Below, in pieces: positions 23,888 through 53,262 of a stretch of DNA of 64,000 nt. This DNA comes from Chitinophagaceae bacterium (GTDB lineage Bacteria; Bacteroidota; Bacteroidia; Chitinophagales; Chitinophagaceae). Positions within the stretch are counted from its first letter, which is position 1; every line of letters starts with the position of its first letter. Both the position numbers and the translations under genes were made by a program. The notes under the pieces were generated by a model. The model was not told the origin of the DNA. It saw nothing but the letters and a program-made list of their open reading frames with translations, and made no database searches. Location of the stretch: contig DATDIX010000324.1 of assembly GCA_036520835.1 (NCBI GenBank), positions 17,332-81,331 on the forward strand, written 5' to 3'.

Positions 23888-23890
23888 TTA

Positions 23891-25459: not shown

Positions 25460-25474
25460 CGTTAGTGTTAACCG

Positions 25475-30095: not shown

Positions 30096-32912
30096 TTATT
30101 TACCTGAAAAATCAAAATACAATACCAGTTTCAAAGCCCTTGCCGGGTCTTTTTCATAATCATAAAAAATATTTTTTGACCCCATCGGGCCGGTGGTTTC
30201 ATTGCGTTGCGTCTTGGTGCCAATACTGCTGATACCCTGCATAAATGAAATATCGCCGGATGGAAAGATGGGTTCATAATTATGCCACTGGTCTGTTTTC
30301 CATGCAGGCGTGAACAATCGCAGGAATAAACCTTCTGTTTCCGTGACAACAGCAAAGCGGTTTTTCTTTGTAAAAAACAGTCCACCATAAAAATTGGAAT
30401 AATATCCTTTGAATTCAGGATACTCCCATGGATATTCCCCCGTCTCTGTATTATTGTAACTTTTTTCCCATGCCCCAAATTGATTGCCTTTCATCCTGTT
30501 TTTCCATACCCGGTATGGGCCATCACCCATATAAGCAATGGATTCGATCTCGTTTTCCGGGAAAGAAAAATTGATACCTGCGAAATTGCTGAAGTAAGCA
30601 CCGGGAAAATAGTTTACTTCAAGCTGTACCCATCCCGAAGGATAAATGGTCCACTTTAAGGTATTGTAGCTCTCCTTCTTTTCATAAGTTGATTCAACAA
30701 CATAATTATCCCCCTGCCGGTATTGCCTGATACCTTTAAAATTATCCAGTCCTTCCTGGATTATCGGGCCATTGTTAAATGGCAATTCACCATTTTTGTT
30801 TTTGACGGACACCAGCATGCCGTTAAATTGGTTAAACGCCAGTGAAACATCCTTCACATTCACATAAATAAGTGTCGTATCAGCAACGGGAACCGTGATT
30901 GAGTTACTACCTTTTTTTACCACCTCCCGCTCACTCATTGCTTGAGGGCTACTGATAGGGAAACTCCAGGTAAAAAGCTCCCTGCCGTAAGCATCCTTTG
31001 CTGTCACATACAATACATCATAATTTTTCCAGCCTGCAGGCAGCTTGATTTGCATGGTTCCTTTGCCTCCTGGTTTTATATCCGGGGCCGCTGCCACACC
31101 TTTTATCTCCTGCGATGTGATCTCTTCAAACCTTTTTAACTTCCAGCTAAAACTGCATCGGTTGATATTGGTAAAATGATACCGGTTTTCAATATTCAGT
31201 TTACCATCAAAAGCACTTGTAATTTCTTTTCGCTCAAAATAAACCGGGCTCCATATTTCTTTGATGGCATAATAACTCCCCTCCTTTTCAAGATGAGGTC
31301 CAAGAATACCATCAGCCCCGCGGTGCTTATCGGTATCCAATGAATCATTCTTATCCTTTCTTACCACTCCCTGGTCGGCAAAATCCCAAAGAAACCCACC
31401 TGCACTCAACGGATCATGCCACATTTTTTCCCAATAGTCTTCCAACCCGGCGCCATGGCCGCCATCAAATTGTCCGTGTAAAAATTCGGTGGGCATTACG
31501 ATCTCTCTTCCATTTTCATAATTACCGATACCGTAGTTGTATTCCCGGTAATGTTGTGTTTCAATACTCCCAAATAACTGCCATGGGTGAATAACCGGCC
31601 GCTTCTGTATGTCAAATTTTTTAAACAAAGTATCCAATTCCAGGTTATGACCTCCTTCATTTCCATTACACCAAACAATAATTGAAGGGTGATTCATATC
31701 GTGTACAATCATTTCTTCTACCAGCTTTGTACCAGTTGGCGTATCATAATGGCCATGCCAGCCAGCCAGTTCATCCAATACAAACAGCCCCAGAGAATCA
31801 CATACATCAAGAAAATGATCATCCGGGGGATAATGACTCATCCGGACTGCATTCATGTTCATGTCTTTCATGAGCAGTACATCCTCAATACTGATTTGCC
31901 TGCTTAATGTTCTGCCTGTTTCCGGTCTGAATGAATGCCGGTTAACGCCTTTCATTTTTATTTTGACTCCGTTTACATATATGCCATCTCTTTGTTTTAC
32001 TTCTACGGTTCTGAAACCAAATTTTTGTGATACGGTGTGAACAGGTTTTTTGTCTTTGTAGATCGTAAATATTGCTTTATACAAATAGGGAGATTCGGGA
32101 TTCCATAACCTGGGACGTGAGAAGTTCGTGTCAATTGAAAACACACCGGTGCGTCCTAGCAGAACAGCACCTGCTTTCGCAAACAATTTACCGGCAGCGT
32201 CAAAGATTTGAACCTGTGCTTTACCACGAAAATTGTCCGCATCGAAAAAAGCAAAAAAACCTCCATCGGCCGTTGCTTCGATTTCTATATTTTCAATATG
32301 CACCTGTGGCAATACTTCCAGGTATACCGGCCGGAAGATGCCACCAAATATCCAAAAGTCCGCACGTCTTTCAGCGGAATTCACCGATTCATTCGCCGAA
32401 TGCTTTGAAACAGTTACTTCCAAAAAATTCTTTCCCCCATAGTTAAGGAATTCTGTGATATCATATTTGAATGCATAAAAAGCCCCCTGGTGAATGTCAC
32501 CGGCTGATTGGCCATTGATCTTTACTTCGGTGTCTGTCATTGAGCCTTCAAAAACAATTTTTACAACTTTATTCTTCCAGCTTACAGGCACATCGAAAGA
32601 ATGTTTGTATAACCCCTTTTCTTTTCCCCTCACACTATCCTTCGCAAAACCATAATCATACTTTCCAAATCCCTGCAGTTCCCAGCAGGATGGAACAGGT
32701 ATAGTTGTCCATTTACCAGAGTTCATCCCGCCGGTACACATGAATTCCCAGTTCACAGTGTTATCACTTCCTGTGCCTGAGAGATAAACCTTTTCAGTTT
32801 GTTGGGAGAATATATTGTTTGATGTGAGTAATACAAAGAACACAACGAACCACGAAGAACACAACGTTGTGTACTTCGTGTAGATCTTTGTGTTCTTTGT
32901 GCTCCAATTCAT
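30096..32912 (-). CDS. GH2 glycosidase (beta-galactosidase/glucuronidase/arabinopyranosidase class)
   Basis: The 938-aa product has the GH2 TIM-barrel motif NAVRMSHYPPDDHFLDVCDSLGLFVLDE and the acid/base region WCNGNEGG. Its start overlaps the upstream stop in an ATGA arrangement. Confidence 0.85.
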   Translation of the reverse strand: MNWSTKNTKIYTKYTTLCSSWFVVFFVLLTSNNIFSQQTEKVYLSGTGSDNTVNWEFMCTGGMNSGKWTTIPVPSCWELQGFGKYDYGFAKDSVRGKEKGLYKHSFDVPVSWKNKVVKIVFEGSMTDTEVKINGQSAGDIHQGAFYAFKYDITEFLNYGGKNFLEVTVSKHSANESVNSAERRADFWIFGGIFRPVYLEVLPQVHIENIEIEATADGGFFAFFDADNFRGKAQVQIFDAAGKLFAKAGAVLLGRTGVFSIDTNFSRPRLWNPESPYLYKAIFTIYKDKKPVHTVSQKFGFRTVEVKQRDGIYVNGVKIKMKGVNRHSFRPETGRTLSRQISIEDVLLMKDMNMNAVRMSHYPPDDHFLDVCDSLGLFVLDELAGWHGHYDTPTGTKLVEEMIVHDMNHPSIIVWCNGNEGGHNLELDTLFKKFDIQKRPVIHPWQLFGSIETQHYREYNYGIGNYENGREIVMPTEFLHGQFDGGHGAGLEDYWEKMWHDPLSAGGFLWDFADQGVVRKDKNDSLDTDKHRGADGILGPHLEKEGSYYAIKEIWSPVYFERKEITSAFDGKLNIENRYHFTNINRCSFSWKLKRFEEITSQEIKGVAAAPDIKPGGKGTMQIKLPAGWKNYDVLYVTAKDAYGRELFTWSFPISSPQAMSEREVVKKGSNSITVPVADTTLIYVNVKDVSLAFNQFNGMLVSVKNKNGELPFNNGPIIQEGLDNFKGIRQYRQGDNYVVESTYEKKESYNTLKWTIYPSGWVQLEVNYFPGAYFSNFAGINFSFPENEIESIAYMGDGPYRVWKNRMKGNQFGAWEKSYNNTETGEYPWEYPEFKGYYSNFYGGLFFTKKNRFAVVTETEGLFLRLFTPAWKTDQWHNYEPIFPSGDISFMQGISSIGTKTQRNETTGPMGSKNIFYDYEKDPARALKLVLYFDFSGK
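32834..32899. repeat. 66-nt nested imperfect palindrome inside codons 5-26 of the GH2 gene
   Basis: The outer arms caaagaacacaa (32834-32845) and ttgtgttctttg (32888-32899) are perfectly complementary over 12 bp. The inner arms cacgaagaacacaa (32851-32864) and ttgtgtacttcgtg (32867-32880) pair over 14 bp with one mismatch. Confidence 0.8.
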
Positions 32913-34441
32913 AATTTACCAGTTACCTTTTGCAATACAGCAGATGAGGCTGTTTTTTTCCCATTTACCCATACACTCAGCCCCTTTCCTTTTTTATACT
33001 TCATCCCGGTTTTATCCCAGATGATGGTAATGATCTTTCCATGATATAAAACGTTGTCCAGGCAAAACCAATCCCATTTATTATCCGGCAATAATGGATT
33101 TACTTCGATCACATCATCTGCCCGGGGTCTTAAACCAACAAGTCCCGTTATAATAAGATCATTAAATGTTGAGTGATTGTAATAACGGCTTCTTTCTTCA
33201 TCACCTTTCAACCAATAACCTGTTTTTTCATCCAGGTATTCACCTATATAAGGACGGCCACGGTAATATTGTGACTCCACATAGGTTTCCAGCAGGTCAA
33301 AATAATTACTGTCGGCTACATAGTCCTGTTTATAATTATTCAGCAGGTTGGCCATAGCAGTCAGCGTTTGCGATGTGGCAAATGGCCACACAGCGCCATC
33401 CCATTCACATTTGCAGCAGCCATGTGTACGAAATTTCGGATGGCTCCTGTCAGCAGTAGTAATACCAAAGGGCGCACAAAATGTTTTGGTATCTGTCAAA
33501 CTTTTCCACGCATCATTGTAATTGTTATCCGGCATACTAAAATACCAGGGGATAAAACCAATCTCCTCCTTTACATTCGCCGATGTATCACCCTGTTCTT
33601 TCAGCACTTCAAAAAAATCATGTCCGTTGTTCCAGAGTTTCGATTGGGTCAATTGTTTTACAGTATCCGCTTTACGGTTGTATACTGCGGCAACATCTGA
33701 CCTGCCTGCCATCGTTGCAATAGATCCAAGCCCTTTTGCATTGCCATACATGTACCCGTTAATAGAGGGTCTTGCATTCTTCTCCCTTCTTCCCCCGCTG
33801 ATCGTTTCCTCCATTGCATCTCTCACATCAAACTGCCAGTACAAACCATTCAATGATCTTTTCTCATTTTCCCAGGCTGCATAATCTGCTTCCAGGTCAG
33901 GTAATAAGTCAAGAACAAACTTTTTATCGCTGTTCACCAGGTAACGGTTATAAACAGCATCCATATTCCAGCCGCTGTAAAAGCGGAGTTTGCTCATGGG
34001 TTTCCCGCCATTCCCACGGTACCACACATGCAGGTTGTTATCCATGTATCGCTTATCATGTAGCCACCTTGACTCATAAATATGATGCCCCAGCGCACTG
34101 CTGATCAGGTTGTATTTATCAGCATAACTTCTTTGTACCAGGAATTCCGTAAACACAAAGCCCTGGTCTGTTTTTTTGATATGCTTCCGCAATGTCCACC
34201 AGCGGTAATAGAATATCTCTTCAAAATTCTGCTGCGGGCATTCAAACAGGGGAATATTCTTTTTCATCCATCCCCATGCACTGTCATTCGGAATGGCCTG
34301 CCTGATATTCTCATCTTCCATTTTGTTGAAGTAATCAACATAATGCCTGAATGACTCCGCTTTCAACAGCATCGGTTTGATTTGTGCTGAAAGGCATGTC
34401 ATCCATAGTAACACAAGCGATATGACAATTATTCTTTTCAC
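32909..34441 (-). CDS. Secreted (alpha/alpha)6-barrel glycoside hydrolase (GH63/GH37/MGH1-like; family uncertain)
   Basis: The 510-aa product has a signal peptide. Motifs seen are LFECPQQNFEEIFYYRWWTLRKH, CEWDGAVWPFATSQTLTAM and GLRPRADDVIEVNPLLP, which are typical of six-hairpin glycosidases. Confidence 0.55.
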   Translation of the reverse strand: MKRIIVISLVLLWMTCLSAQIKPMLLKAESFRHYVDYFNKMEDENIRQAIPNDSAWGWMKKNIPLFECPQQNFEEIFYYRWWTLRKHIKKTDQGFVFTEFLVQRSYADKYNLISSALGHHIYESRWLHDKRYMDNNLHVWYRGNGGKPMSKLRFYSGWNMDAVYNRYLVNSDKKFVLDLLPDLEADYAAWENEKRSLNGLYWQFDVRDAMEETISGGRREKNARPSINGYMYGNAKGLGSIATMAGRSDVAAVYNRKADTVKQLTQSKLWNNGHDFFEVLKEQGDTSANVKEEIGFIPWYFSMPDNNYNDAWKSLTDTKTFCAPFGITTADRSHPKFRTHGCCKCEWDGAVWPFATSQTLTAMANLLNNYKQDYVADSNYFDLLETYVESQYYRGRPYIGEYLDEKTGYWLKGDEERSRYYNHSTFNDLIITGLVGLRPRADDVIEVNPLLPDNKWDWFCLDNVLYHGKIITIIWDKTGMKYKKGKGLSVWVNGKKTASSAVLQKVTGKL

Positions 34442-34450: not shown

Positions 34451-35986
34451 TTAGTCACGACCGATAATTTCTGTCCACCTCTTGTAACCTTTACCGGCCA
34501 AACCATTGCTCCTGCCGGCCCTGTAAACTTTCTTTTCGCCACTCAACTGCTTTAATGCTCCGATACCAGCAAATATGCCGGCCTTTAATCCGGCCATATA
34601 CGCAGCACCCATGGCCGAAACATCAGGCATGCCGGTACAAACAACACTCTTATTTAAAAGATCGGCCAGGAACTGCAAAACAAATTGATTGGCCGTCATT
34701 CCCCCGTTTACCATCAGCTCTTTTAATGACAACCCTGCATCTTTTTCCATCGCGGTCACTACATCCATCACCTGGTAGGGAATGGATTCGAGTGCAGCAC
34801 GGACAATATGATTTTTATTTGTCCCGAAACTCATCCCGGATAGAGTGGCCCGTCTTTCCATTTGCCAATGAGGTGAACCTAACCCGCTAAATGCCGGCAC
34901 CAGGTAAACGCCTCCATTATCACTTACCGCATTCGCCATCGTTTCCGTTTCACGGCTATCTTTAAAAAGGGCTAATTCATTTTTCAGCCATTCGATAGTA
35001 GCGCCGCAGGAAACAATGACCCCTTCCAATGCATAATCAATTTTTTCTTCAGTACTCCAGCAGATCGTCGTCACCATTCCATGGTTTGACTGAACCGGCT
35101 TATCTCCAATATTCATCAATAGGCTGCAACCGGTTCCCAATGTGGCTTTTGCTGTACCCGGTTCAAAACAACCTTCTCCAAATGCAGCAGCGTGGGAGTC
35201 ACCGATCATCGCTGTAACAGGAATTGATCTTGGAAGAAGCCCGTTTAACGAAGTCTCCCCGTAAAAAGCAGAAGATGATTTTAATTCAGGCAGCCGGATT
35301 CCTTTCAACCCGTAAGCTTCGATCAATTCATTATCCCAACCGAGTGTATGAAGATTGAAAAAAAGTGTTCGGGACGCATTGGTATAGTCGGTTGCATACT
35401 TTTCCCCGTTGGTGAGTTTATACAGTAACCATGTATCTATGGTTCCAAAAAATGCATCGCCATTCTTTACCGCTTCCCCTACTGAACTATTATTTTGAAA
35501 AAGCCAGGTCAGTTTCGTAGCCGAAAAATACGGATCTATCACTAATCCCGTCTTTTCCCTGATTATACCTGAGAGACCTTTCTGCCTGAGCTGTTCGCAA
35601 ACACCGATAGACCGTTTGCATTGCCACACTACGGCATTATACAAAGGCTTACCCTTTTTATCCCATACCACGAATGTTTCCCGCTGGTTGGAAATTCCGA
35701 TCGCCTCTATTTCAGTTTCGTCGTATCCTTTTTCCCGGAACTGCAATAAGCATTTCTTTACAGAGGCAAGCACATTGGTATAGATCTCTTGCGGGTCCTG
35801 CTCCACAAAACCATTATCAATATAGTTTGTATGCAACGGCTCCGATCCTTTGGCAACAGCCTGCCCCTTCTCATCAAAGATCAATGATTTGGTAGAGCTG
35901 GTGCCCTGGTCAATGGCCAATATGTACCTGTTCTTATTCAATATTGAAAATTCTTTAGTCCTTTTTATCTCCTGCTTTATCAACAA
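34451..35986 (-). CDS. FGGY-family carbohydrate kinase, glycerol-kinase-like but with an altered substrate pocket
   Basis: The product aligns by eye along its whole length with E. coli GlpK (YILAIDQGTSS, NQRETF, DPYFSATK, LEGV..., PAFSGLGSPHW). The GlpK motif GDQQAA is replaced by GDSHAA. There is no ATG start; candidates are TTG at 35986 (32-nt overlap with the permease gene) or TTG at 35941. Confidence 0.8.
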   Translation of the reverse strand: MLIKQEIKRTKEFSILNKNRYILAIDQGTSSTKSLIFDEKGQAVAKGSEPLHTNYIDNGFVEQDPQEIYTNVLASVKKCLLQFREKGYDETEIEAIGISNQRETFVVWDKKGKPLYNAVVWQCKRSIGVCEQLRQKGLSGIIREKTGLVIDPYFSATKLTWLFQNNSSVGEAVKNGDAFFGTIDTWLLYKLTNGEKYATDYTNASRTLFFNLHTLGWDNELIEAYGLKGIRLPELKSSSAFYGETSLNGLLPRSIPVTAMIGDSHAAAFGEGCFEPGTAKATLGTGCSLLMNIGDKPVQSNHGMVTTICWSTEEKIDYALEGVIVSCGATIEWLKNELALFKDSRETETMANAVSDNGGVYLVPAFSGLGSPHWQMERRATLSGMSFGTNKNHIVRAALESIPYQVMDVVTAMEKDAGLSLKELMVNGGMTANQFVLQFLADLLNKSVVCTGMPDVSAMGAAYMAGLKAGIFAGIGALKQLSGEKKVYRAGRSNGLAGKGYKRWTEIIGRD

Positions 35987-36932
35987 TCACTGCCAGCAGG
36001 ATCACTCCTCCTTTCACTACCTGTTGCCAGAATGGTGAAACATTCAGCAGTACAAGACCGTTGTTCAGTACGCCGATAATAATGGCCCCGATCACGGTTC
36101 CCCATACACTTCCTTTTCCCCCATTGAGTGATGTGCCGCCGATCACTACTGCCGCTATTGCATCCAGTTCATAACTGATCCCGGCATTGGGTTGTGCTGA
36201 ATCCAACCTGGATGTAACGATCACTCCCCCTAATGCGGCCAGTGCAGCACCCATGCTGTAGACGATCAGTTTTACTCTATTGATACGGATACCGGAAAGC
36301 TTTGCGGCTGTTTCATTTCCGCCAATAGCATAAATATATCTTCCCAACCTTGTTTTTCGGGTAATAAACACGGCCAGCATCACCACCAATGCTGCTATCC
36401 ATACCGGGACCGGTATCCCTATCAGGGAGCCGGTTCCGATATAAGTAAAACTTTCTCCGAGATTGCTGACGGGATGCCCGCCTGTATATAACATGGTAAG
36501 CCCTCTTGCGATAGTCAGCATGGCCAGTGTAGCCACAAATGGTGGCACTTTGAAAGAAGTGATCGCAAACCCATTGAACAATCCGAGCAGTGCACCGGCA
36601 ATAATAGCCGCCAGCACCGCACCCAGAATAGTAAATCCAACAAACAGGTCAGCCGATGGGAATTGCAACCCGTTTTTTAATAGCCCGGCTGTGATAGCTC
36701 CGCAAAGTGCCAATACTGATCCAACAGACAGATCAATGCCCCCGGTCAGAACGATCAATGTCATTCCTGTGGCAATACAAATATTTACGGCTACCTGCCG
36801 GAGAACATTCAGTCCATTTGCCGTAGTAAAGAATTTATCAGTCAGCAGGCTCAGCGTGATGCATAAGATCAACAAAGCGATCACTGATTGAAACCTGCCG
36901 ATATTTTTATTATATGAAACAGAAGCAAGCAT
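35955..36932 (-). CDS. Sugar ABC transporter permease (RbsC-type)
   Basis: The 325-aa product is polytopic and resembles ribose/monosaccharide ABC permeases (GGIDLSVGSVLAL, TRLGRYIYAIGGNE). Confidence 0.85.
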   Translation of the reverse strand: MLASVSYNKNIGRFQSVIALLILCITLSLLTDKFFTTANGLNVLRQVAVNICIATGMTLIVLTGGIDLSVGSVLALCGAITAGLLKNGLQFPSADLFVGFTILGAVLAAIIAGALLGLFNGFAITSFKVPPFVATLAMLTIARGLTMLYTGGHPVSNLGESFTYIGTGSLIGIPVPVWIAALVVMLAVFITRKTRLGRYIYAIGGNETAAKLSGIRINRVKLIVYSMGAALAALGGVIVTSRLDSAQPNAGISYELDAIAAVVIGGTSLNGGKGSVWGTVIGAIIIGVLNNGLVLLNVSPFWQQVVKGGVILLAVIVDKAGDKKD

Positions 36933-36939
36933 TCCTATA

Positions 36940-38445
36940 TTAGTTTTTATGGATGGCGCATTTTAATATTTCCGTCTCTGTTGCATTTTCAATAGGTATG
37001 TTTGCGGTTAATTCACCCTCGCACATGACGAGCACACGGTCGGACACTGCCAGTATCTCAGGCAACTCTGATGACACCATCATAATACCCATACCCTCTG
37101 CGGCAAGTGATTTCATCAGTTTGTATATCTCTGCCTTAGCATTTATATCAACACCACGGGTGGGTTCATCCAGCAATAATATTTTTGGATGAGTAGCCAG
37201 CCATTTAGCCAGCACGATCTTTTGCTGGTTGCCACCGCTCAGGTTCTTTGCCGCATTATTACCTGATGAAGTTTTAATAGCGAGACCTGCAATATAATTT
37301 GCGGTTAGCTCCTTCTCTTTTTTTGCATTCAGCATAAAGCCCAAGCGCTGTAGTTTCTGAAGAACAGCGATACTGATATTAGCCCTGACTGTTTGCGACA
37401 GGATAAGTCCCTGTAGTTTCCGGTCTTCAGGTACCAATGCAATTCCGGCTCCAATAGCCTGCGCCGGAGACTTTATTTTCCTGTCCTTCCCGTTCACTGT
37501 AATCTCCCCGGAAGAATTTTTGGGATGCAAGCCAAAAATAGTTTCCATCAGTTCGGTCCGCCCCGCCCCCATTAGTCCATAAAGACCCAGGATCTCTCCT
37601 TTAGATAATGTAAAGGAAATATTATTCAGCAATTTTGTGATCCGCAATAACGGGTGCTTTAAGCTGATGTTCTTAACCGATAATAACTCCTGCTTATCTT
37701 TCAGGGTGCAACCTGTCTTTTCAAAACTTAATTTCCTTCCCGTCATTTTTTGAATAAGCTCATCCGATGTGATGACGTCCAAATTGCCTGAGCTGATCGT
37801 CATCCCGTCTCTCAGCACTACGTAGCGGTCGGCGATAGCAAAAAGCTCTTTCAGTTTATGAGAAATATAAACAACGGTCTTACCCTCTTCCTTTAATTTC
37901 CGGATAATCGAAAACAGGTTCTCCACTTCCTTATCACTGATCGCTGAAGTGGGCTCATCCATGATGATAACGGAAGCATTCGAATACAATGCCCTTGCGA
38001 TCTCCACGAGCTGCTGTTGCCCGACTTTCAGTTCAGCGATCTTTGTACCGGGATCTACTGCAAGATTTAACTGCTTCAGTAATTCTGCTGATCTTTCTTT
38101 CATCATTTTTTTGTCCAATATCCCCAGGCTATTAGTGATTTCTCTCCCCAGGAAAATATTTTCAGCTACAGATAAATAAGGAACAAGATTGAGCTCCTGG
38201 TGAATGATGGCGATGCCGGCTTGTTCAGCGCTTTTTGTACTGGTAAACTTTACCGGCTGCCCGTTGTAAATGATCTCGCCGTCATACTGTGTATGCACAC
38301 CCGAGAAAATCTTCATCAGGGTGGATTTACCGGCTCCATTCTCCCCGATAATGGCGTTGACCTTACCGGGATGCAGCTCCAGGTTAACCCCGTTCAACGC
38401 GGTGACCCCGGAAAATCTTTTCGATATGTTCTTTGCAACCAGCAT
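36940..38445 (-). CDS. Sugar ABC transporter ATP-binding protein with duplicated ABC domains (RbsA-type)
   Basis: The 501-aa product has two Walker A motifs (GENGAGKST and GLMGAGRTE) and two signature motifs (LKVGQQQ and LSGGNQQK). Confidence 0.9.
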   Translation of the reverse strand: MLVAKNISKRFSGVTALNGVNLELHPGKVNAIIGENGAGKSTLMKIFSGVHTQYDGEIIYNGQPVKFTSTKSAEQAGIAIIHQELNLVPYLSVAENIFLGREITNSLGILDKKMMKERSAELLKQLNLAVDPGTKIAELKVGQQQLVEIARALYSNASVIIMDEPTSAISDKEVENLFSIIRKLKEEGKTVVYISHKLKELFAIADRYVVLRDGMTISSGNLDVITSDELIQKMTGRKLSFEKTGCTLKDKQELLSVKNISLKHPLLRITKLLNNISFTLSKGEILGLYGLMGAGRTELMETIFGLHPKNSSGEITVNGKDRKIKSPAQAIGAGIALVPEDRKLQGLILSQTVRANISIAVLQKLQRLGFMLNAKKEKELTANYIAGLAIKTSSGNNAAKNLSGGNQQKIVLAKWLATHPKILLLDEPTRGVDINAKAEIYKLMKSLAAEGMGIMMVSSELPEILAVSDRVLVMCEGELTANIPIENATETEILKCAIHKN

Positions 38446-39074
38446 TAGTGTACGATCTTCAGCCTGACCGGGATCAATTCGATGTTTCTAAAATCAATAT
38501 GCTCTTTATTGAATTCCACCGCAGCTACTACTTCTATTGTATCTCCCTGTTTTACTTCTTTCTTAAATACGGGCAGTATGGAATTCCTCACCGTTTTGTT
38601 CAATTCCTCCGAAATACCATTAAGGTCAGCTGTATTGGTAAAGTCTTTTATATCTACCAGTTTCGATGCGTCGCGTATTGCATTGCCGTAGATGAACTCC
38701 GTAGCAAGCCTTGTGATCAGCAGGGAATCTGCATGGTTTATTTGCAAAACAATTTCGTCTTCATTAATAACAGCAGCGGTGGCCTTTGTTTTAACCAGGC
38801 TATACCGGTAGTTGCCGATGCCAAGAACATTCGAGTGCTTTGCAAATGCATTTTCCGGGTCAGTTTCAATTGAGCGGATCAGGTCTGTCAGTGCAATAGC
38901 GCTATCAAGTTTTGAAGGCAATTGCTCTTCCCATATCTTTTTTGAAAAACTGGCAGCGTCAAATTTTCCGGTGGCTGCAGCTTTTACTTCACCCAGCTTT
39001 TTAAAATAAACTGATTTATACCCAGCCAGTGCAATGACAAGTGCCAGTATGAGATATTTTATCAATTTCTTCAT
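38445..39074 (-). CDS. DUF2291-family periplasmic/membrane-anchored protein associated with sugar ABC transporters
   Basis: The 209-aa product has an N-terminal anchor and the motif IYGNAIRDASKLVDIKDFTNTADLNGISEELN, as I remember it for DUF2291. It is coupled to its neighbours through TAATG overlaps. Confidence 0.6.
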   Translation of the reverse strand: MKKLIKYLILALVIALAGYKSVYFKKLGEVKAAATGKFDAASFSKKIWEEQLPSKLDSAIALTDLIRSIETDPENAFAKHSNVLGIGNYRYSLVKTKATAAVINEDEIVLQINHADSLLITRLATEFIYGNAIRDASKLVDIKDFTNTADLNGISEELNKTVRNSILPVFKKEVKQGDTIEVVAAVEFNKEHIDFRNIELIPVRLKIVH

Positions 39075-39083
39075 TTGCGTGGT

Positions 39084-40022
39084 TTATTTTTTTCCATAAG
39101 CAATATAATCGCTGATATTCCCGGCAGTCACCAACTCCACGGCCACGGGTATCTTTTTCGGAAAATCCCGTTTGCCTTTGATATACTCGTTGGCAAACTG
39201 TGCCGCTGTTTCTGCCATTACTTTGGGAAACTGCATACCGGTAGCGGCCACTTTGTTTTCACTGATCGCCGTGATCACATCCTCGGCGCCGTCAAAGCCA
39301 AACACTTTTACATTACTGGCCTTACCTGCTGATACCAATGCCTGGTATGCACCCATTGCCATGGCATCATTGCCGCAAAAAACACCATCGATATCCGGGT
39401 GTGCCTGCAAAATGGTTTCCATTACTTCCATCGCCTTGTTGCGATCGAAATCTGCACTCTGTTGCGCTACCATTTTCAACCCACTGTAATTGTCCGCAAC
39501 ACTATGAAAGCCTTTTGACCTTGCCCAGGTATTATTATCGCCAACGAGGCCAAGCAATTCAACATAATTTCCTTTTTTATTCAGTTGCCTGACAAAATAC
39601 TTTCCAATAGAAACAGCCCCCGAATAGCTGTCAGATAATATTTGCGAGGTGGCCCCGTCCGCAGAGTTGATCTCCCTGTCCATACAAAAAACAGGTATGC
39701 CCGCAGCTTTGGCTTTTAAAACATTCGCTACTGATCCATTCGCATCAGTGGGGTTAAATAGTATTGCTCCAAAACCCGCCACAATTATATTTTCGAAATG
39801 GTCGCTTTCCAGCGCAGTGTTATTTTGTGAATCGAATATCCTGGCATCGTATCCCAATGCCTTTGCTTTGGCAGCAGCTGTTTCGGCGAGAAAAACAAAC
39901 CAGGGATTATTAAGTGTGGACACAACTACTGCTATTTTGTTTGAGGTTTGCTTGTCCTGGTTTTTACACTGGACAAAAAACAATGCACCAAACAATGGCA
40001 ATAACAACAATTGTTTTATCAT
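39084..40022 (-). CDS. Periplasmic monosaccharide-binding protein (RbsB-type SBP), lipoprotein
   Basis: The 312-aa product has a lipobox-like sequence (ALFFVQC). It shows a type I periplasmic-binding fold pattern ([36 protein letters not shown]). Confidence 0.85.
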
Positions 40023-40024
40023 CT

Positions 40025-40987
40025 TTATCGTTTTAACAATGACAAAGCAGTATCGGCGATCCCCTTTTCACTGATACCATAATGGTTAAATATATCCTGT
40101 TGTGAACCCGTTACCGTGTACTCATCCGGAATACCGACGATCTTAAAAGGCTTTACAAGTCCCAGTTGAAGAAGGAACGATGCACAGGCTTCACCTAGTC
40201 CGCCATATACACTGTGCTCTTCCACAGTTATAACAGCTTTGCATTTTTCAGCCAGTCTTTTCACCAGGTCCGTATCCAATGGTTTTATCGTATGCATACT
40301 CACAACAGTAGCTTTGATATTTTGTCCGCTTAATTTTTTTGCAGCCTGCAATGCAGGATATACCGTTTCGCCTGTAGCTATGATGGCAATATCATCACCT
40401 TCCATGATTACTCTCCCTTTGCCAAAAGCAAAGCCGTCATCATTTTTTTCTTTCAACAGCGGCATTGGTTTTTTACCAAAGCGCATATATACCGGGTGAT
40501 CGGTCTCCGACGCCAATTCAACCGCCTTTTCCGTTTCGTAATTATCTGCCGGCGCTACAATAGTGATATTATTAATAGCCCGGAGCACTGCGAAATCATG
40601 AAGGCTGTGATGGGTGGAACCCAATGGACCATAACTAACCCCGGCGCTGATGCCGATCACGTTGACAGGATTATCGCTGTAGGCTACATCATTCTTTATC
40701 TGCTCCAATGCCCTGGCTGTTAAAAAACAGGCAGGCGATACTGCAAACACTTTCTTTCCACAGGATGCAAGTCCCGCTGCCACGCCAACAAGGTTTTGTT
40801 CAGCGATGCCTACCTCGATAATTTGCTTAGGAAATCTTTTCCCAAACGGAACCAATTTACCTGACCCTCTCGAATCGCTGGTTACGGTAATAATGTCTTT
40901 ATCATTCTCCGCCAACCGCTGGACTGTTTCAGAAAAAACATCCTGGTTAGGTTTATAGCCGTTATTGGATACAACTGTTTCCGCCAT
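40025..40987 (-). CDS. Transketolase, C-terminal (pyrimidine-binding) subunit of a split transketolase
   Basis: The 320-aa product contains [16 protein letters not shown] and [14 protein letters not shown]. Its ATG overlaps the stop of the N-terminal subunit gene (TAATG). Confidence 0.88.
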
Positions 40988-41811
40988 TATATTGCCGTTA
41001 AAGCTTGATTTAATTCTTCTACTGCCTGTTCGTATTGCTCTTTACTGGGTACGCCATGATGCCATTTTACTTCGTTCTCCATAAAACTTACTCCTTTCCC
41101 TTTTACTGTATTGGCAATAACAAGAGATGGCTTTCCTTTTTCGAACGGTAAACTGTCAAATACTTTTTTCAATTCGCCGGGATCATTACCATCAATACTT
41201 CTTACAACCCAGCCGAAACTTTCGAATTTTTTATCAAGGGGATCGGTATTGCAAACATCCGCAGTGGATCCCGTTATCTGCAGTGTATTTTTATCCACGA
41301 TAGCGCAGAGATTATCCAGTTTATAATGTGCCGCGGTCAAAGCAGCCTCCCAATTTGAGCCTTCAGGTAATTCCCCATCACCCATTAAAGTAAACACCCT
41401 GAAACTCTTCTCATCCAGTTTTGCAGCCAGCGCTGTTCCGGTTGCAATAGGCAATCCATGACCCAGTGCACCTGTATTCTGTTCGATACCGTTCACCTTC
41501 TTCGTAGGATGGCCGATATAATGTGACCGATATTGGCAAAGAGTGTTCAGGTCTTCCTCAGGAAAAAATCCTTTATCCGCCAATACCACATACAATGCTT
41601 CCACGCTATGTCCTTTACTTTGAATGTAGCGGTCACGATCAGGTGAAGAAAAGTTTTGAGGCGATACATTCATCACCTGGTTATATAAAACATTCAATAT
41701 ATCCACACAGGACAAACTGCCCCCGGTATGTCCGGCCTTTGCCTGCAGGATATATTGCAATATCTTTTTACGGTATTGTATTGATTTCTGTTTAAGTTCC
41801 TTTGTTGTCAT
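40987..41811 (-). CDS. Transketolase, N-terminal (TPP-binding) subunit of a split transketolase
   Basis: It contains AGHTGGSLSCVDIL and GDGELPEGSNWEA. The track start at 41892 is TTG and would overlap the upstream gene, so I prefer the ATG at 41811 (MTTKELKQK...). Confidence 0.85.
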   Translation of the reverse strand: MTTKELKQKSIQYRKKILQYILQAKAGHTGGSLSCVDILNVLYNQVMNVSPQNFSSPDRDRYIQSKGHSVEALYVVLADKGFFPEEDLNTLCQYRSHYIGHPTKKVNGIEQNTGALGHGLPIATGTALAAKLDEKSFRVFTLMGDGELPEGSNWEAALTAAHYKLDNLCAIVDKNTLQITGSTADVCNTDPLDKKFESFGWVVRSIDGNDPGELKKVFDSLPFEKGKPSLVIANTVKGKGVSFMENEVKWHHGVPSKEQYEQAVEELNQALTAI

Positions 41812-41851
41812 TTGCTTTAAACTTCCTGGACCTTTTAAACTTGTTAAATCT

Positions 41852-43267
41852 TTAATTGTGCTGGTAAGTTTCCCAGCCGAGGTAATTATCAAACGCCTCT
41901 TTCAATATCCCTGCTGTTTTACTTGCATTCATCACTACGTGGTGCTCAAAACCACTGCGGCATACATACTGCATCAACCCCTGCAGGTTGTTGATCTGTG
42001 CAACTGCCCGGGTACCAAATGTATTCAATGCATCATTTGTCAACTCACCCTCGCCAACGTAGGCTTTGATAACACCTTTGCAATCATCCGTGCTGATACG
42101 GCCATAAGTCAACGGCATGGCAGGAGTACGCCCATCCAACGCACCATAAGTATTCTCAGTTCCTACACTGGTGCCAAGAATAGGTGCAGTGCTAATAGTT
42201 ATATCGGGCAGAAATGATTTGGCCCAGTTTCCGCAATGAAACAACACGCATTTGGTATCATCATCAGCATAATTATTATTCCAGTCCACCAGTGCAGAAG
42301 GGGAACCGCTTGCCAACTGCATGGCATACATGCTCAGCGTGCCGGTCACATCCACTTCACAGGCAGAAGGCAACATGTTCTCACTCATCATACTCATGCT
42401 GGTACACACATTACAGCCATAATTTTTTTGGATCGATGTCCAGCACTGAATAGCCGTTGCATCCAAAGCATTCTCAGTCATAAAATCAGCCAGCACTACG
42501 TCCAGCTTTGCAATTTGTACTAATCTATCAGGCGGTGTTGATCCTGTATTGGTGTAAGCGTGAATTTTTTCCAGCTTTTCCTTTACTGATTTGTCATCAG
42601 CCGTTAACTTATTGGCATTACCTAATATTTCTGATAAGTCAACTGTCGTTACGGAAATACCATTGCGCTGCAATAATTTTTCGCTGTAACGTACGGTATT
42701 AAAAGCGGTGGGTCTTGCACCAACCGCACCAATGCGAACTTTGCGTAAACCATTAACCACGCGGCAAATGGCAGTAAAATTTTTTAAATCCCTGGTAAAC
42801 GATTCGTCTTTCGGGCTTACCACATGTTTTGTAGTAAGTGAATATTTTATTCCATACTGGTACAAATTGTTGCAAACAGATATCTTACCGCACCAGGCAT
42901 CTCTCCGGTTCACCACATCCATCTTTCCTAAATCATCAGGATAGCCCTGTACCAGTACCGGTACATTTAACCCGGATAACTTGATCGTTTCTGCAACGCC
43001 CTTCTCATCTCCAAAATTGGGCAGCACCACCAGGATACCTTCAATGGCATCAGCATGTTGCTTAAACAATGCTGCACATTTCCGGGCTTCCGCAAAAGTC
43101 TCCACACCTCCAAGTTTGGTATCAGCATCACTAAGTAAGACCGGCGTTATATTGAGTTTTTTGAAAACACTGATCACTTCTGACCTGGCTTCAGCTACCA
43201 GCTTATCGGGAAAAAAATCCCGGTTACCGATAATGACACCCATGGTACTATTTCTTTGAACTGCCAT
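41852..43267 (-). CDS. L-fucose/L-arabinose isomerase superfamily protein (short, 471 aa)
   Basis: The N-terminus reads MGVIIGNRDFFPDKLVAEARSE...VLPNFGDEKG, typical of FucI-like proteins. It is cytoplasmic, with no signal peptide. Confidence 0.7.
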   Translation of the reverse strand: MAVQRNSTMGVIIGNRDFFPDKLVAEARSEVISVFKKLNITPVLLSDADTKLGGVETFAEARKCAALFKQHADAIEGILVVLPNFGDEKGVAETIKLSGLNVPVLVQGYPDDLGKMDVVNRRDAWCGKISVCNNLYQYGIKYSLTTKHVVSPKDESFTRDLKNFTAICRVVNGLRKVRIGAVGARPTAFNTVRYSEKLLQRNGISVTTVDLSEILGNANKLTADDKSVKEKLEKIHAYTNTGSTPPDRLVQIAKLDVVLADFMTENALDATAIQCWTSIQKNYGCNVCTSMSMMSENMLPSACEVDVTGTLSMYAMQLASGSPSALVDWNNNYADDDTKCVLFHCGNWAKSFLPDITISTAPILGTSVGTENTYGALDGRTPAMPLTYGRISTDDCKGVIKAYVGEGELTNDALNTFGTRAVAQINNLQGLMQYVCRSGFEHHVVMNASKTAGILKEAFDNYLGWETYQHN

Positions 43268-43279: not shown

Positions 43280-45106
43280 TTATTGGGTTTTTAAATACGA
43301 TATATAGTAAACAGCCTCTTTATCTTTTTTATCTGCTCCCGGCAGATCATAATCCTGGTCGGTCGGTGTATCTGCATCAGGGAAACGGCGCACTGTTCCT
43401 GTCCTGAAGGCGATCCGTTCCACTGATTGCACCGGGGCAAAACATAAGTTGTTATTTGGCCTGCCATCATTGATACTTACCGTATAGAACCTTGTTCCCA
43501 CATTCAGTTCAATTTTTATGGCCAGTGTTTCCCCGGCTTTGTATTTGCCAAGACTTTTATTACGGTATCCCTGTTTTGTCAGCACATTAGCTGCTGAATC
43601 AAGCATTACCCGAAGGCAAGCCGTTCCCTTTGCATCCAGCATTTCAATTTCAAGGTTACCAAATTGATCTTGTACAGGCGTAACAGAAAATTCTATTGTG
43701 ATTTTTTTTGACTCCGGGAATACCCGCTCTGCTTTTGCATAATCAAAAGGATCACTATCATGCAATGCCAGTACTTTTTGCCCTTTAAAATTTTCAATGC
43801 CGGTTCTGCACCAGAGCGGGCTATATAAATTCCATTCGTTCAGTTCGGCTCTATACTGCTTTGAATTGAATACATCATTCACATGAGTTGTTACTTTATC
43901 CCGGACCGGAACAGGTATCCTGCTCACCCACATATCTTCCTTATTCATGCTGTACGTCACCCACATATTACCATCAGCAGGCTTTCCATCCATCTCCTGG
44001 ATACCGCGGACATACTGCGGACCATAACTTTTATAAGCACCGCCATAGCGCATGGAAGTGATCTCCCCGTTCACCAGCAGGAGGTTTTTATATTTCAATC
44101 CGTCATCACTCACACTTACAGCCAGCGGCCAGCGAAATTCAGAAGGATTATATACTGTGGCATATTTCCTGTCATTGGTTCTTTGTCCCCATATTTTTGC
44201 ATTAGCATTCACAAACCCGGGCGCCCTCGTTGGACTATACTGCCATGTTTTTCCTTCATCTTTGCTGATACTGGTCAAAGCGTATTTCCATAGTGCCACT
44301 GCCCGGCCATCCGGTAAATGATAATAATTAAACGCTTTGAAATCTTTTTGTAATGGGATCAGCGGATCATTCCTGTCACCCTCCTCTACGGTTTGCATCA
44401 TTAATAAAGGTGTAGTGAGTATTTCATCACCGGCTGCTACCAGCCCTTTATCATTTGAGGATTTGTAAAACGGGTAAGAAGTGTTCTTTTCATTAAAGGA
44501 ATGATTATACCTCAAAAAGTAAATGGACCCGAAACTTCCGTCCGCTTTTATCTCCCGTATCACACGGCCAATACCATTCCCATCATTAGGATCATCTTTT
44601 TGACCTAATGCAATTCCATAAAAAGCCAGCGCAAATAATCGTTTTGATTTTGAAGTATAAAAACCAAAACGCTGATGCATCACCGCATAGCTGTTCTTTG
44701 CTGTATCGGTCTTTCCTTCTTTTGCAAACCCATCGGGAATTTTATATGGCGGAAAGACCACTACAGGATAAGACCAGTTGTAACCATCTTTCGAGGTCTG
44801 CAACAATGTTTGACCGGGAGGGATATGCTCGCCAACAGGATCACTTAAATACTCAAGATAAAATGTATTGTTCCAGTACGCCAGCATCGGCGCATGGTTG
44901 TAGGTCCATGAAGCAGCGCCTGTGTCAGCCCGGTTGGCCCTCATGGTTTGGATATTATGTACACCAACAGCAGGTGATAACTGCCCGTGATGATAATCAA
45001 CATTGGATAAGGTACTTCCAATATAGCGAACTGTATCCTGTGCATCCGATGCAAGAAATAATAAGTGCAGTGTGACAACACCCATTATATGATAAAGCAG
45101 CTTCAT
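43280..45106 (-). CDS. Secreted sialidase-fold propeller plus C-terminal beta-sandwich; candidate Dha/Kdo hydrolase (GH143/GH33-like)
   Basis: The 608-aa product has a signal peptide and Asp-box-like motifs (TSKDGYNWS, SKDEGKTWQ, VSDDGLKY). A C-terminal module of ~170 aa has a lectin/beta-sandwich-like composition. Confidence 0.55.
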   Translation of the reverse strand: MKLLYHIMGVVTLHLLFLASDAQDTVRYIGSTLSNVDYHHGQLSPAVGVHNIQTMRANRADTGAASWTYNHAPMLAYWNNTFYLEYLSDPVGEHIPPGQTLLQTSKDGYNWSYPVVVFPPYKIPDGFAKEGKTDTAKNSYAVMHQRFGFYTSKSKRLFALAFYGIALGQKDDPNDGNGIGRVIREIKADGSFGSIYFLRYNHSFNEKNTSYPFYKSSNDKGLVAAGDEILTTPLLMMQTVEEGDRNDPLIPLQKDFKAFNYYHLPDGRAVALWKYALTSISKDEGKTWQYSPTRAPGFVNANAKIWGQRTNDRKYATVYNPSEFRWPLAVSVSDDGLKYKNLLLVNGEITSMRYGGAYKSYGPQYVRGIQEMDGKPADGNMWVTYSMNKEDMWVSRIPVPVRDKVTTHVNDVFNSKQYRAELNEWNLYSPLWCRTGIENFKGQKVLALHDSDPFDYAKAERVFPESKKITIEFSVTPVQDQFGNLEIEMLDAKGTACLRVMLDSAANVLTKQGYRNKSLGKYKAGETLAIKIELNVGTRFYTVSINDGRPNNNLCFAPVQSVERIAFRTGTVRRFPDADTPTDQDYDLPGADKKDKEAVYYISYLKTQ

Positions 45107-46029
45107 TGTTTATTAAAATGTGTCAATAGTTTTTTAACCGTTTTTCGCTTCACCAGTACGATCGTTCCGTGTTTATGTCCTTCCGGCAGTTTTACTTTGG
45201 TTGTTATCGTGTCAAAATGAACAAAATCCTTTGTCGCCGAAGCATCATATATCTTTTTCCTGTATGAATCATAATAGATCAGCCATTCATCTTTCACTTT
45301 TACCACGGATGGCCCTTCTGTAAAATTCTCCGTGAAGGCTTTTGAAACATTCTTCCATGGCCCTAACGGGGAATCACTGAATGCAACTTTAATGTCCCTC
45401 TCCGGTCTCGTGTTATCTTTTAATACAAGCACATAATCCTTAGCTGCCTTTTTTACGATTACCGCATCGATCACACTAAAGCCCGGATCAAGAAATAGCT
45501 TTGCCGGGGAAAAGGTTTTAAAATCTCTTGACGTTGTCACATACATCCGGTGGTTATTACTGTCTTCTTCTATGCCCCTTTCAAATCTCCCGGGGATACA
45601 GGAAGCCCAGATAATGATAAATTGTTTTTCATCCTCATCATAAAACAATTCCGGCGCCCATACATTCACCGTCGTTGGCTCATGCGCCATAACCGGTATG
45701 AATTGCTGTTCGCTCCAGTGAACAAGGTCATTTGATGAAGCATAACCAAAACCTTTATCACCTTTCCAGCTGCTCGTCCACACCAAATGAAAAGTGCCAT
45801 CCGGCGCCTGCACCATCGATGGGTCACGCATCACTTTCTGGTTACCCACTTTTGGTTGTAAAAGAACTGTATCAAAATCGCTCCAATTCTTGCCATCGAA
45901 ACTGTACAACATTCGTAAACCTTCATTCGCCGGCTCATGAAATGAAGTGAAGAGATATGCTTTACCCGTACATGCAACAGATCCAATTATCACAAAACAC
46001 AAAATGATATATTGTATGACCCTCCTCAC
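45103..46029 (-). CDS. GH43 five-bladed beta-propeller glycosidase, lipoprotein
   Basis: The 308-aa product carries the GH43 catalytic contexts VMRDPSMVQAPDG, VWAPELFYD and FTEGPSVVK. It uses a GTG start that overlaps the upstream TGA, and has the lipobox IIGSVAC. Confidence 0.85.
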   Translation of the reverse strand: MRRVIQYIILCFVIIGSVACTGKAYLFTSFHEPANEGLRMLYSFDGKNWSDFDTVLLQPKVGNQKVMRDPSMVQAPDGTFHLVWTSSWKGDKGFGYASSNDLVHWSEQQFIPVMAHEPTTVNVWAPELFYDEDEKQFIIIWASCIPGRFERGIEEDSNNHRMYVTTSRDFKTFSPAKLFLDPGFSVIDAVIVKKAAKDYVLVLKDNTRPERDIKVAFSDSPLGPWKNVSKAFTENFTEGPSVVKVKDEWLIYYDSYRKKIYDASATKDFVHFDTITTKVKLPEGHKHGTIVLVKRKTVKKLLTHFNKQ

Positions 46030-50455: not shown

Positions 50456-50504
50456 AACTGCTGGTTTTAATGCCTGCTAATATCATTATAAATCTACTGT
50501 TTAT

Positions 50505-52163: not shown

Positions 52164-52257
52164 TTTTACACTGATTGAATTTTATTAGACGGTTTAACCG
52201 GAAATAAACTGCGGCTAATTCAAAATTTTTTCTTTCAAACCCTGTTTACTTTATCCG

Positions 52258-52288
52258 TATAAAAAAGAGAAAGCACTACACTTTCTCT
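52258..52288 (-). terminator. Rho-independent terminator after the susCD-2/lipoprotein operon
   Basis: The minus-strand RNA reads AGAGAAAG-UGUAGUG-CUUUCUCU followed by UUUUUAUA. It lies 25 nt after the stop at 52313. Confidence 0.75.
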
Positions 52289-52312
52289 TCTTTAAAATAT
52301 TATTGAGAAAGT

Positions 52313-53242: not shown

Positions 53243-53262
53243 ATACAAGTTCAATTTTATAA

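Follow-up and report, generated by a model that had tools for sequence, protein, structure and literature searches.

A candidate D-apiose uptake and catabolism cassette with a FucI/AraA-fold isomerase in a Chitinophagaceae rhamnogalacturonan II locus

The stretch of DNA analysed here (the window: 64,000 nucleotides of contig DATDIX010000324.1 from assembly GCA_036520835.1, a Chitinophagaceae bacterium of soil or freshwater) carries eight closely packed genes on the minus strand between positions 34451 and 43267, encoding a FucI/AraA-type isomerase, the N- and C-terminal subunits of a split transketolase (TK-N and TK-C), a solute-binding protein (SBP), a DUF2291 protein, the ATPase and permease of an ABC importer and an FGGY kinase (Table 1). 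Comparisons of sequence and gene neighbourhood make it quite probable that this block is a cassette for the uptake and catabolism of D-apiose, working by the known transketolase route with a non-orthologous isomerase and with the predicted substrates and products set out below. An earlier reading of the window from its letters alone (the sequence-only reading) had listed these eight genes as the parts of that route; analysis of open reading frames (ORFs) and Pfam domains located every one of them at the proposed positions and on the minus strand, and the parts list stands, with a FucI-type protein in the slot of the apiose isomerase ApsI of Pectobacterium, beside counterparts of the apulose kinase AplK and the transketolase subunits AptA and AptB.

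The cassette genes stand close together, the extremes being an overlap of 1 nt and a gap of 40 nt: 40 nt separate the isomerase from TK-N, TK-N and TK-C overlap by 1 nt, 2 nt lie between TK-C and the SBP gene and 9 nt between the SBP and DUF2291 genes, the DUF2291 and ATPase genes overlap by 1 nt, and the permease follows the ATPase after 7 nt. The start of TK-N proposed in the sequence-only reading, the ATG at 41811, agrees with the length of the E. coli homolog (274 aa in the window, 276 aa in E. coli AptA). The kinase ORF has no ATG start, and of the two candidate codons, TTG at 35986 (giving a 32-nt overlap with the permease) and TTG at 35941, the latter is probably the start, judging from the alignment to GlpK. 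TTG starts are probably uncommon in Bacteroidota, and the start of this gene could be liable to mis-calling by automatic annotation.

Table 1. Genes of the candidate apiose cassette, followed by surrounding features of the polysaccharide utilisation locus in the window.
Feature	Position	Strand	Supporting match
FucI/AraA-fold isomerase, 471 aa	41852-43267	-	Pfam Fucose_iso_C, 95 bits
Transketolase N-terminal (ThDP-binding) subunit, AptA-like	40987-41811 (ORF to 41892)	-	Pfam Transketolase_N, 150 bits
Transketolase C-terminal (pyrimidine-binding) subunit, AptB-like	40025-40987	-	Pfam Transket_pyr + Transketolase_C
RbsB-like (CUT2) solute-binding lipoprotein	39084-40022	-	Pfam Peripla_BP_4, 186 bits
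DUF2291 membrane-anchored periplasmic protein	38445-39074	-	Pfam DUF2291, 171 bits
ABC ATPase, two fused nucleotide-binding domains, RbsA/XylG-like	36940-38445	-	two ABC_tran domains
ABC permease, RbsC-like	35955-36932	-	Pfam BPD_transp_2, 160 bits
GlpK-like FGGY kinase	34451-35986	-	Pfam FGGY_N + FGGY_C
GH140 apiosidase-family hydrolase	46026-47426	-	Pfam Apiosidase, 378 bits, + Collagen_bind_2
GH143-type hydrolase (BT_1020-like)	43280-45106	-	Beta-prop_BT_1020, 385 bits; Sialidase-like_CBM, 206 bits
MGH1-like / GH65_C glycoside hydrolase	32909-34441	-	Pfam MGH1-like_GH, 293 bits
SusC/SusD pair	53263-58350	-	SusD_RagB, SusD-like_3; CarbopepD_reg_2 + Plug
Second SusC/SusD pair	9798-14478		

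The assignment of the kinase to the FGGY family held and can be narrowed to the GlpK-like FGGY kinases, as is the case for AplK. The window protein passed the NCBIfam GlpK subfamily model NF000756 (582 bits, cutoff 498), scored 465 bits against E. coli GlpK structures and stayed under the cutoff of the GlpK equivalog model TIGR01311 (576.9 against 590.35 bits), and it is 36-38% identical to AplK of E. coli, Rahnella and Pectobacterium. In the alignment with E. coli GlpK, R83, E84, W103 and D245 are retained, whereas the window kinase has S, H and S at the pocket positions of Q246, Q247 and F270. The same S/H/S set was found in AplK of E. coli, Rahnella, Pectobacterium and Yersinia and in the kinases of the Chondrinema, Planctomycete-like and Bryobacterales loci described below; S246 and S270 are also present in the kinases of Pseudothermotoga and Anaerolineae, where position 247 is S in the former and Q in the latter, and the motifs 'GDSS' and 'GTGSS' of the Thermotoga maritima kinase are consistent with S246/S270. 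Presumably F270 and Q246 line the glycerol site of GlpK, and smaller side chains there would leave room for a larger glycerol-like compound such as apulose; the window protein is proposed to be an AplK-like apulose kinase. UniProt Q6D5T8 has been named as apulose kinase (preprint 10.64898/2026.02.12.705490).

TK-N is 51% identical to AptA of E. coli SE15 and 59% identical to the corresponding subunit of the T. maritima cassette, and TK-C is 43% identical to E. coli AptB. Both subunits scored under the NCBIfam transketolase cutoffs, and the canonical pyrimidine-domain motif was not found in TK-C: where canonical transketolases have 'VGEDGASHQ', the window protein, AptB and every cassette transketolase examined have 'YGPLGSTHH'. 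Over a longer motif of 15 residues, AptB (LNAGASYGPLASTHH) and all other cassette transketolases are nearly identical to the window TK-C, whereas those of the Carboxydothermus split transketolase (6yaj; THAGLTVGEDGASHQ) and of human transketolase (SHCGVSIGEDGPSQ) differ. We take the corresponding motif of E. coli TktA to be H461 / E468-D469 / H473-Q, with H461 and D469 presumably serving in phosphate binding and in recognition of the acceptor C2 hydroxyl; the motif change removes this His and this Asp, and would plausibly suit a donor whose C3 is tertiary and whose C4 bears no hydroxyl. In our judgement the derived features that the window proteins have in common with AplK and AptB outweigh the modest overall identities of 36-51%.

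No true match to the window isomerase was obtained in the PDB by sequence or profile search. An AlphaFold model built from 23 family members (pLDDT 91.7, pTM 0.92) was matched by Foldseek to 4r1q (TM-score 0.83, 12% identity), E. coli AraA 2ajt (0.79) and FucI 1fui (0.75), the best fold matches being L-arabinose isomerases, then L-fucose and D-arabinose isomerases, and as modelled the protein has the three-domain AraA/FucI fold. Orthology to FucI or AraA proper was not found, identity to solved AraA/FucI structures being 10-13% and NCBIfam FucI and AraA models giving no match; the only NCBIfam model touched was SftI, at 89 bits against a cutoff of 700. The closest proteins to those of the window come from Chitinophagaceae, and the isomerase is identical to one from a Chitinophagaceae metagenome-assembled genome (MAG); its identity exceeds 90% with proteins from Lacibacter, Ferruginibacter and Flavihumibacter, is 70% with a Chondrinema plasmid protein and 52-55% with FucI-like proteins in the apt clusters of Enterobacterales; in the plasmid collection the next relatives are only about 25-27% identical. 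At E <= 1e-30 the subfamily comprises about 384 cluster representatives, with hosts in Yersinia (including Y. pestis and Y. enterocolitica), Klebsiella, Thermotoga, Planctomycetota, Chloroflexota, Acidobacteriota and Bacteroidota, and everywhere it bears the database name 'L-fucose/L-arabinose isomerase family protein'. Residues E304, D306, D328, H344, E441, H442 and H443 are invariant in the family. We take the Mn2+-binding and catalytic residues of AraA to be E306, E333, H350 and H450; E304, D328, H344 and H442/H443 match them in order and spacing and may be their counterparts. Conversion of apiose to apulose requires a C1/C2 aldose-ketose isomerisation, as catalysed by this enzyme class, and the window protein is proposed to be the enzyme for this step, a non-orthologous substitute for the PF01261 protein ApsI.

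Direct backing for such a substitution came from the proteobacterial apt clusters, in which the first-step gene was recorded for 80 AptA-containing loci of species-representative genomes, mostly Enterobacterales. Two short-chain dehydrogenases/reductases (SDRs) occupy the first step in 33 of the loci, a FucI-like gene in 30 (including Yersinia, Buttiauxella, Sodalis, Acerihabitans, Atlantibacter and Mangrovibacter) and a PF01261 gene in 12 (Pectobacterium and Brenneria), five loci being truncated or having none of these; not one of the 80 loci holds two first-step types. In Pectobacterium carotovorum DSM 30168 the order is SBP, DUF2291, ATPase, permease, AptA, AptB, AplK, a PF01261 protein of 332 aa and a SorC regulator, and in many FucI-type loci, Yersinia among them, the FucI-like gene stands directly after aplK, at the position of the Pectobacterium PF01261 gene. 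Yersinia vastinensis and P. carotovorum proteins are 83% (SBP), 81% (ATPase), 89% (permease), 88% (AptA), 78% (AptB), 71% (AplK) and 83% (regulator) identical, and the isomerase alone differs. Because kinase, transketolase and SBP are so alike, the intermediates must be the same, and we infer that the FucI-like protein should make apulose from apiose. The two suspicions of the sequence-only reading, that the isomerase has another fold than the characterised one (a PF01261 TIM barrel in Pectobacterium, the AraA/FucI fold in the window) and that it is a non-orthologous replacement, thus gain direct backing from the structure match and from the 30 FucI-type loci.

The Pectobacterium cluster has been described as having apsI, with two oxidoreductases in its place in Escherichia, and P. 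carotovorum grew on D-apiose, as did the E. coli and E. fergusonii strains that have the cluster, whereas E. coli K-12, which has no cluster, did not grow (PMC13001218). In E. coli SE15, where aplK is ECSF_RS02700, aptA RS02710 and aptB RS02715 (PMC13001218), the order is SDR, SDR, permease, ATPase, DUF2291, SBP, AplK, regulator, AptA, AptB. The PF01261 xylose-isomerase-like TIM barrel is the sole isomerase-like gene of the P. carotovorum cluster, and by its position and the statement in PMC13001218 we infer it to be ApsI. Within the window no ApsI homolog was found, the sole PF01261 domain giving E = 0.13 against the P. carotovorum protein. That domain belongs to a minus-strand ORF at 14676-17018, which was considered as a hidden ApsI and rejected for its lack of similarity to the P. 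carotovorum protein; its 780-aa product has the TIM barrel at its C-terminus (residues 543-758), is weakly similar to glucuronoyl esterases in the N-terminal part and has no NCBIfam match. AptA identity of about 50% was likewise rejected as a discriminator, as split transketolases of Rhizobium and Caballeronia reach 47-49%; their genomic context is the two-SDR cluster variant, hence they are no counter-example. Two AplK lineages, about 45% identical to each other, were seen among the 80 loci and do not track the isomerase type. Database names proved uninformative, because apiose is never mentioned in them, even for the AptB of Pectobacterium atrosepticum. This AptB is probably among the characterised proteins, and Q6D5T8 is taken, from its accession series, to be from the same species.

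At least five phyla have members with this set of genes, which argues that the arrangement is not due to chance. All eight genes were found in T. maritima MSB8, a Pseudothermotoga contig, a Planctomycete-like contig, a Chondrinema plasmid (Cytophagales), where the gene order is identical to that of the window, and Ferruginibacter. A reduced form occurs in Anaerolineae (permease, SBP, RbsD, transketolase, kinase and isomerase, with no DUF2291), in which the ATPase could lie in a part of the contig without called genes, and MAGs of Bryobacterales (Acidobacteriota) hold the catabolic genes only, with no ABC importer. In Bryobacterales the order at 4529-11425 is PF01261, TK-N, TK-C, FGGY kinase, SorC regulator and FucI-like isomerase, next to TonB-dependent receptors; this PF01261 gene is not an ApsI homolog, and the mutual exclusivity of the two isomerase types is therefore unbroken. 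The T. maritima cassette (CP007013.1, 8633-20972) includes as its binding protein TM0958, the structurally solved tmRBP (2fn8/2fn9), and seven of its genes are 46-59% identical to those of the window, DUF2291 being 24% identical. Upstream of it lie rbsK and rbsD, and downstream a gene with DUF5060, Apiosidase-like (PF13204) and DUF5605 domains, which provides a second, weaker and independent link to the release of apiose.

SBP and transporter, too, are of the type found in apiose clusters: the window has a CUT2-family ABC importer with an RbsB-like SBP and DUF2291, as in E. coli, Rahnella and Pectobacterium. The SBP, which has a lipoprotein-type signal peptide (...FFVQC|KNQ), had its best PDB match in tmRBP (2fn8, 359 bits), with the Rhizobium etli proteins 5ibq/4ry0 at about 199 bits, and is 40-41% identical to the SBPs of the Enterobacterales apt clusters. 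None of the Rbs equivalog cutoffs of NCBIfam was reached (RbsB 219 against 337 bits, RbsC 347 against 398, RbsA 548 against 745), and the ATPase was under all NCBIfam equivalog cutoffs, the top model being a xylose ATPase (593 against 699 bits). Identities of the ATPase are 43% to its E. coli apt-cluster counterpart and 52% to that of T. maritima, and the permeases of the window and of the T. maritima cassette share 56% identity. A gene for a DUF2291 protein, which in the window has an N-terminal hydrophobic membrane anchor, lies between SBP and ATPase genes in the E. coli, Rahnella, Pectobacterium, Thermotoga, Pseudothermotoga, Planctomycete-like, Chondrinema and Caballeronia clusters, and is likely to encode a conserved accessory of this transporter type. 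Its place between these two genes was constant across Proteobacteria, Thermotogota, the Planctomycete-like contig and Bacteroidota, although the protein sequence itself is poorly conserved (24% identity between window and T. maritima). The binding residues of the SBP do not separate ribose binders from apiose binders; the window SBP is proposed to be an apiose-binding protein.

The surroundings of the cassette are those of a Bacteroidota PUL (polysaccharide utilisation locus) for rhamnogalacturonan II (RG-II), with two SusC/SusD pairs and the glycoside hydrolase (GH) and associated families GH140, GH143, GH141, several GH78 rhamnosidases, GH2, two DUF3826 and DUF6298. As the sequence-only reading had it, the block begins two genes downstream of the GH140 gene, the two intervening genes being GH43-like and GH143/BT1020-like. 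The isomerase gene starts 12 nt after the GH143 gene and the kinase gene ends 9 nt before the MGH1-like GH, so that the cassette is bordered on either side by glycoside hydrolases in one co-directional array. A promoter and terminator scan found no terminator-like sites between the genes, its counts being at the level of shuffled controls. Because of these short flanking gaps and the lack of an intergenic terminator-like site, the cassette is to be seen as embedded in the PUL rather than beside it, and it is probably co-transcribed with it.

The order DUF6298, GH140, GH43, GH143, cassette, MGH1-like GH is kept in Ferruginibacter and in another Chitinophagaceae genome, and in four genomes of Chitinophagaceae, among them that of Lacibacter without ABC genes, the isomerase comes after GH140-GH43-GH143. 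In Lacibacter sediminis (CP060007.1, 10001-15681 of the examined stretch) the catabolic genes hold the same place in the PUL, with a DUF6438 gene between isomerase and TK-N, and the four ABC-transporter genes are absent. Since the order is the same without the transporter genes, the catabolic genes are tied to the PUL independently of the importer, and since those four genes are absent, apiose must enter L. sediminis otherwise. The importer, which the sequence-only reading had counted as part of the module, is therefore present here as a variable part of the cassette and optional elsewhere. An ABC importer inside a PUL is probably unusual for Bacteroidota.

Taken together, these observations suggest the following pathway. 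Glycosidases of the PUL, GH140 among them, would free D-apiose in the periplasm, where the RbsB-like lipoprotein would bind it and pass it to the CUT2-type importer (permease, ATPase with two nucleotide-binding domains, DUF2291 protein). In the cytoplasm the metal-dependent AraA/FucI-fold isomerase would convert the aldose D-apiose to the ketose apulose, and the GlpK-like FGGY kinase, with its enlarged pocket, would phosphorylate a hydroxymethyl arm to give apulose-4-phosphate. The split transketolase, with thiamine diphosphate (ThDP) as cofactor, would then transfer the C1-C2 glycolaldehyde unit to glyceraldehyde-3-phosphate, yielding xylulose-5-phosphate and dihydroxyacetone phosphate. The kinase and transketolase steps are reportedly those described by Carter et al. 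2018 (MetaCyc PWY-8089). A search of full-text literature, which did not extend to Carter et al. 2018, found no link of apiose to the FucI-type isomerase family, and a FucI-type isomerase may already be contained in that work.

Several observations weigh against this assignment. The window proteins resemble those of the characterised type moderately in sequence (identity 36-38% for the kinase, 38-43% for TK-C and 34-41% for the SBP), and E. coli GlpK, at 42%, is overall a slightly nearer relative of the kinase than AplK is. The metal-binding and catalytic positions assigned in the isomerase derive from order and spacing and not from superposition, hhalign of the family profile to E. coli AraA having given a probability of 0.75% and no usable alignment, and the FucI-type clusters are known here from their genes alone. 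A relative of the isomerase with 65% identity stands by itself on a contig of GCA_964412555.1 (10001-11410), where the surrounding 10 kb contain neither a transketolase nor a kinase or transporter gene. This lone gene, an exception to an otherwise constant association, lies near a glucuronoyl-esterase-like gene and a restriction methylase. The apiosidase-like match next to the T. maritima cassette is weak (52 bits), with no BLAST similarity to the window GH140. The SBP keeps all of what we take to be the ribose-contacting residues of the E. coli ribose-binding protein (RBP), and because rbsK and rbsD adjoin the T. maritima cassette, ribose may be a further substrate of the transporter, or its substrate in place of apiose. 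The closest solved relative of the SBP, tmRBP, was named by similarity and linkage and was crystallised with ribose (PMC2630998).

These last points lead to the reading in which the cassette is mainly an importer of D-ribose, or of pentoses broadly, with an SBP that is a true ribose binder and enzymes that only boost the pentose-phosphate flux. It would account for the score of 359 bits against a protein solved with ribose, for the contact pattern NNPxF / DR / R / F / N / D / Q (by the residues of E. coli RBP), and for the rbsK and rbsD genes directly before the T. maritima cassette and the rbsD in Anaerolineae. However, the window has neither a ribokinase (PfkB) nor RbsD, SBP, permease and ATPase all lie under the Rbs equivalog cutoffs, and the cassette stands in an RG-II PUL in four genomes although ribose is no component of RG-II; moreover, the AplK/AptB-type pocket changes in kinase and transketolase would be unnecessary for ribose. 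The R. etli apiose-binding SBP (5ibq) is a ribose binder too (4ry0), so that binding of ribose does not exclude apiose, and tmRBP may have apiose, or both apiose and ribose, as its ligand. We consider a ribose cassette improbable.

A module for another RG-II sugar handled by a FucI/AraA-type reaction, be it L-arabinose, L-fucose, L-galactose or D-arabinose derived from 3-deoxy-D-manno-octulosonic acid (Kdo), is in our view quite improbable. RG-II does contain L-arabinose, L-fucose, L-galactose and Kdo, FGGY kinases are the partners of AraA and FucI in the classical pathways, the isomerase has their fold, and aldolases of the dihydrodipicolinate synthase (DHDPS) family elsewhere in the window could cleave Kdo or 3-deoxy-D-lyxo-heptulosaric acid (Dha). 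Yet the isomerase is just 12-13% identical to AraA and FucI and matches no NCBIfam equivalog, the kinase is GlpK-like (69 bits with the ribulokinase and 100 bits with the fuculokinase model), and neither an AraD epimerase nor a FucA aldolase is present in the module. In clusters whose SBP, kinase and transketolase are 71-88% identical to those of the Pectobacterium apiose cluster, moreover, the place of ApsI is taken by the FucI-like gene, and the Enterobacterales that have such clusters probably have canonical araBAD and fuc genes as well. The idea raised in the sequence-only reading, that the module handles D-arabinose from Kdo or another RG-II pentose, finds no support, given the AplK/AptB-type active-site signatures of kinase and transketolase. 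That an ordinary glycerol kinase and an ordinary split transketolase, both housekeeping genes, should have come to lie near a sugar transporter by chance is highly improbable. Such a reading could invoke the GlpK subfamily model, which was passed (582 against 498), the PGAP name 'glycerol kinase GlpK' of the Chondrinema orthologue and the transketolases that are the top NCBIfam models for both subunits, but the GlpK equivalog cutoff was missed (577 against 590 bits), the pocket residues Q246 and F270 are replaced, the transketolase is without the canonical GEDG motif, and the eight genes stand together in at least five phyla in differing orders. The D-apiose cassette remains our preferred reading.

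Two further regions of the PUL deserve mention. A second densely packed catabolic module on the minus strand at 18588-26596 comprises a DUF1537 acid-sugar-kinase-like gene (DtnK model 113 bits, cutoff 450), a PdxA-family dehydrogenase (TIGR00557, 337 bits), two DHDPS-family aldolase-like genes, a lactaldehyde-reductase-like iron-dependent alcohol dehydrogenase, an SSF transporter and a BNR sialidase-like hydrolase. PdxA with DUF1537 is the ApnO/OiaK-type pairing of the oxidative apionate/tetronate pathways, and no RuBisCO-like protein was found in the window; the module may act on one of the acidic sugars of RG-II (aceric acid, Dha or Kdo), about whose breakdown little is known. At 47423-53254, also on the minus strand, three genes are kept with the PUL in Ferruginibacter and Lacibacter, encoding a protein of 1010 aa whose C-terminal half is DUF6298 (846 bits), one of 552 aa with a weak PelZ pectate-lyase match only (139 bits, cutoff 840) and one of 313 aa with no family match.

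Beyond the window itself, we put forward tentatively, at somewhat less than even confidence, that the FucI/AraA-fold subfamily is a second, structurally unrelated and so far unrecognised D-apiose isomerase, and that three independent solutions to the first step of the pathway have arisen, namely a PF01261 isomerase, a FucI-like isomerase and a pair of SDRs. If so, this would be a clean three-way non-orthologous displacement at a single pathway step, would complete the account of how bacteria use D-apiose, a rare branched pectin sugar, and would give a function to a widespread isomerase subfamily that has no sequence-detectable structure and is present in the pathogens Yersinia and Klebsiella. 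It would likewise mean that tmRBP, a widely used model protein that would merit a second look, is physiologically a receptor for apiose (or apiose and ribose), that some Bacteroidota PULs carry an ABC importer for one rare monosaccharide, and that soil and freshwater Chitinophagaceae couple RG-II depolymerisation to monosaccharide catabolism within one PUL. As the chemistry of the pathway is already known, the advance would be one of annotation and evolution and not of concept.

Among the known systems, the Pectobacterium apiose pathway (ApsI, AplK, AptA/AptB) has in common with the window the 'YGPLxSTHH' split transketolase, the S/H/S GlpK-like kinase, the RbsB-like SBP, DUF2291, the ATPase with two nucleotide-binding domains and the permease, and the sequence of isomerisation, phosphorylation and ketol transfer to glyceraldehyde-3-phosphate proposed here. 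It differs in its isomerase, a 332-aa PF01261 TIM barrel as against a 471-aa protein of FucI/AraA fold, and in being a stand-alone operon with a SorC-type regulator, which the window lacks, whereas the window cassette lies inside a SusC/D PUL; window proteins are only 34-51% identical to their Pectobacterium and E. coli counterparts. The FucI-variant apt clusters of Yersinia, Buttiauxella, Rahnella, Klebsiella and Sodalis match the window in isomerase family, aptA/aptB/aplK, SBP and DUF2291, but have a SorC regulator, another gene order and no linkage to glycoside hydrolases. The cluster of E. coli ST131 and E. fergusonii (PMC13001218) has AptA/AptB, AplK, SBP, DUF2291, ATPase and permease as in the window, but here two SDRs presumably carry out the first step as a reduction-oxidation, in place of an isomerase. 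The 'rbs' locus of T. maritima has all eight genes, the kinase and transketolase signatures and an adjacent apiosidase-like gene; unlike the window, it adds rbsK, rbsD and a LacI regulator, places the transporter first and is not in a PUL, and for its SBP ribose is the sole documented ligand (PMC2630998). The sulfo-transketolase pathway for sulfoquinovose, which has no kinase step, also combines a FucI-family isomerase (SftI) and a split transketolase that transfers a C2 unit to glyceraldehyde-3-phosphate; the window isomerase reaches just 89 bits against the SftI cutoff of 700, and no sulfonate-handling genes accompany it.

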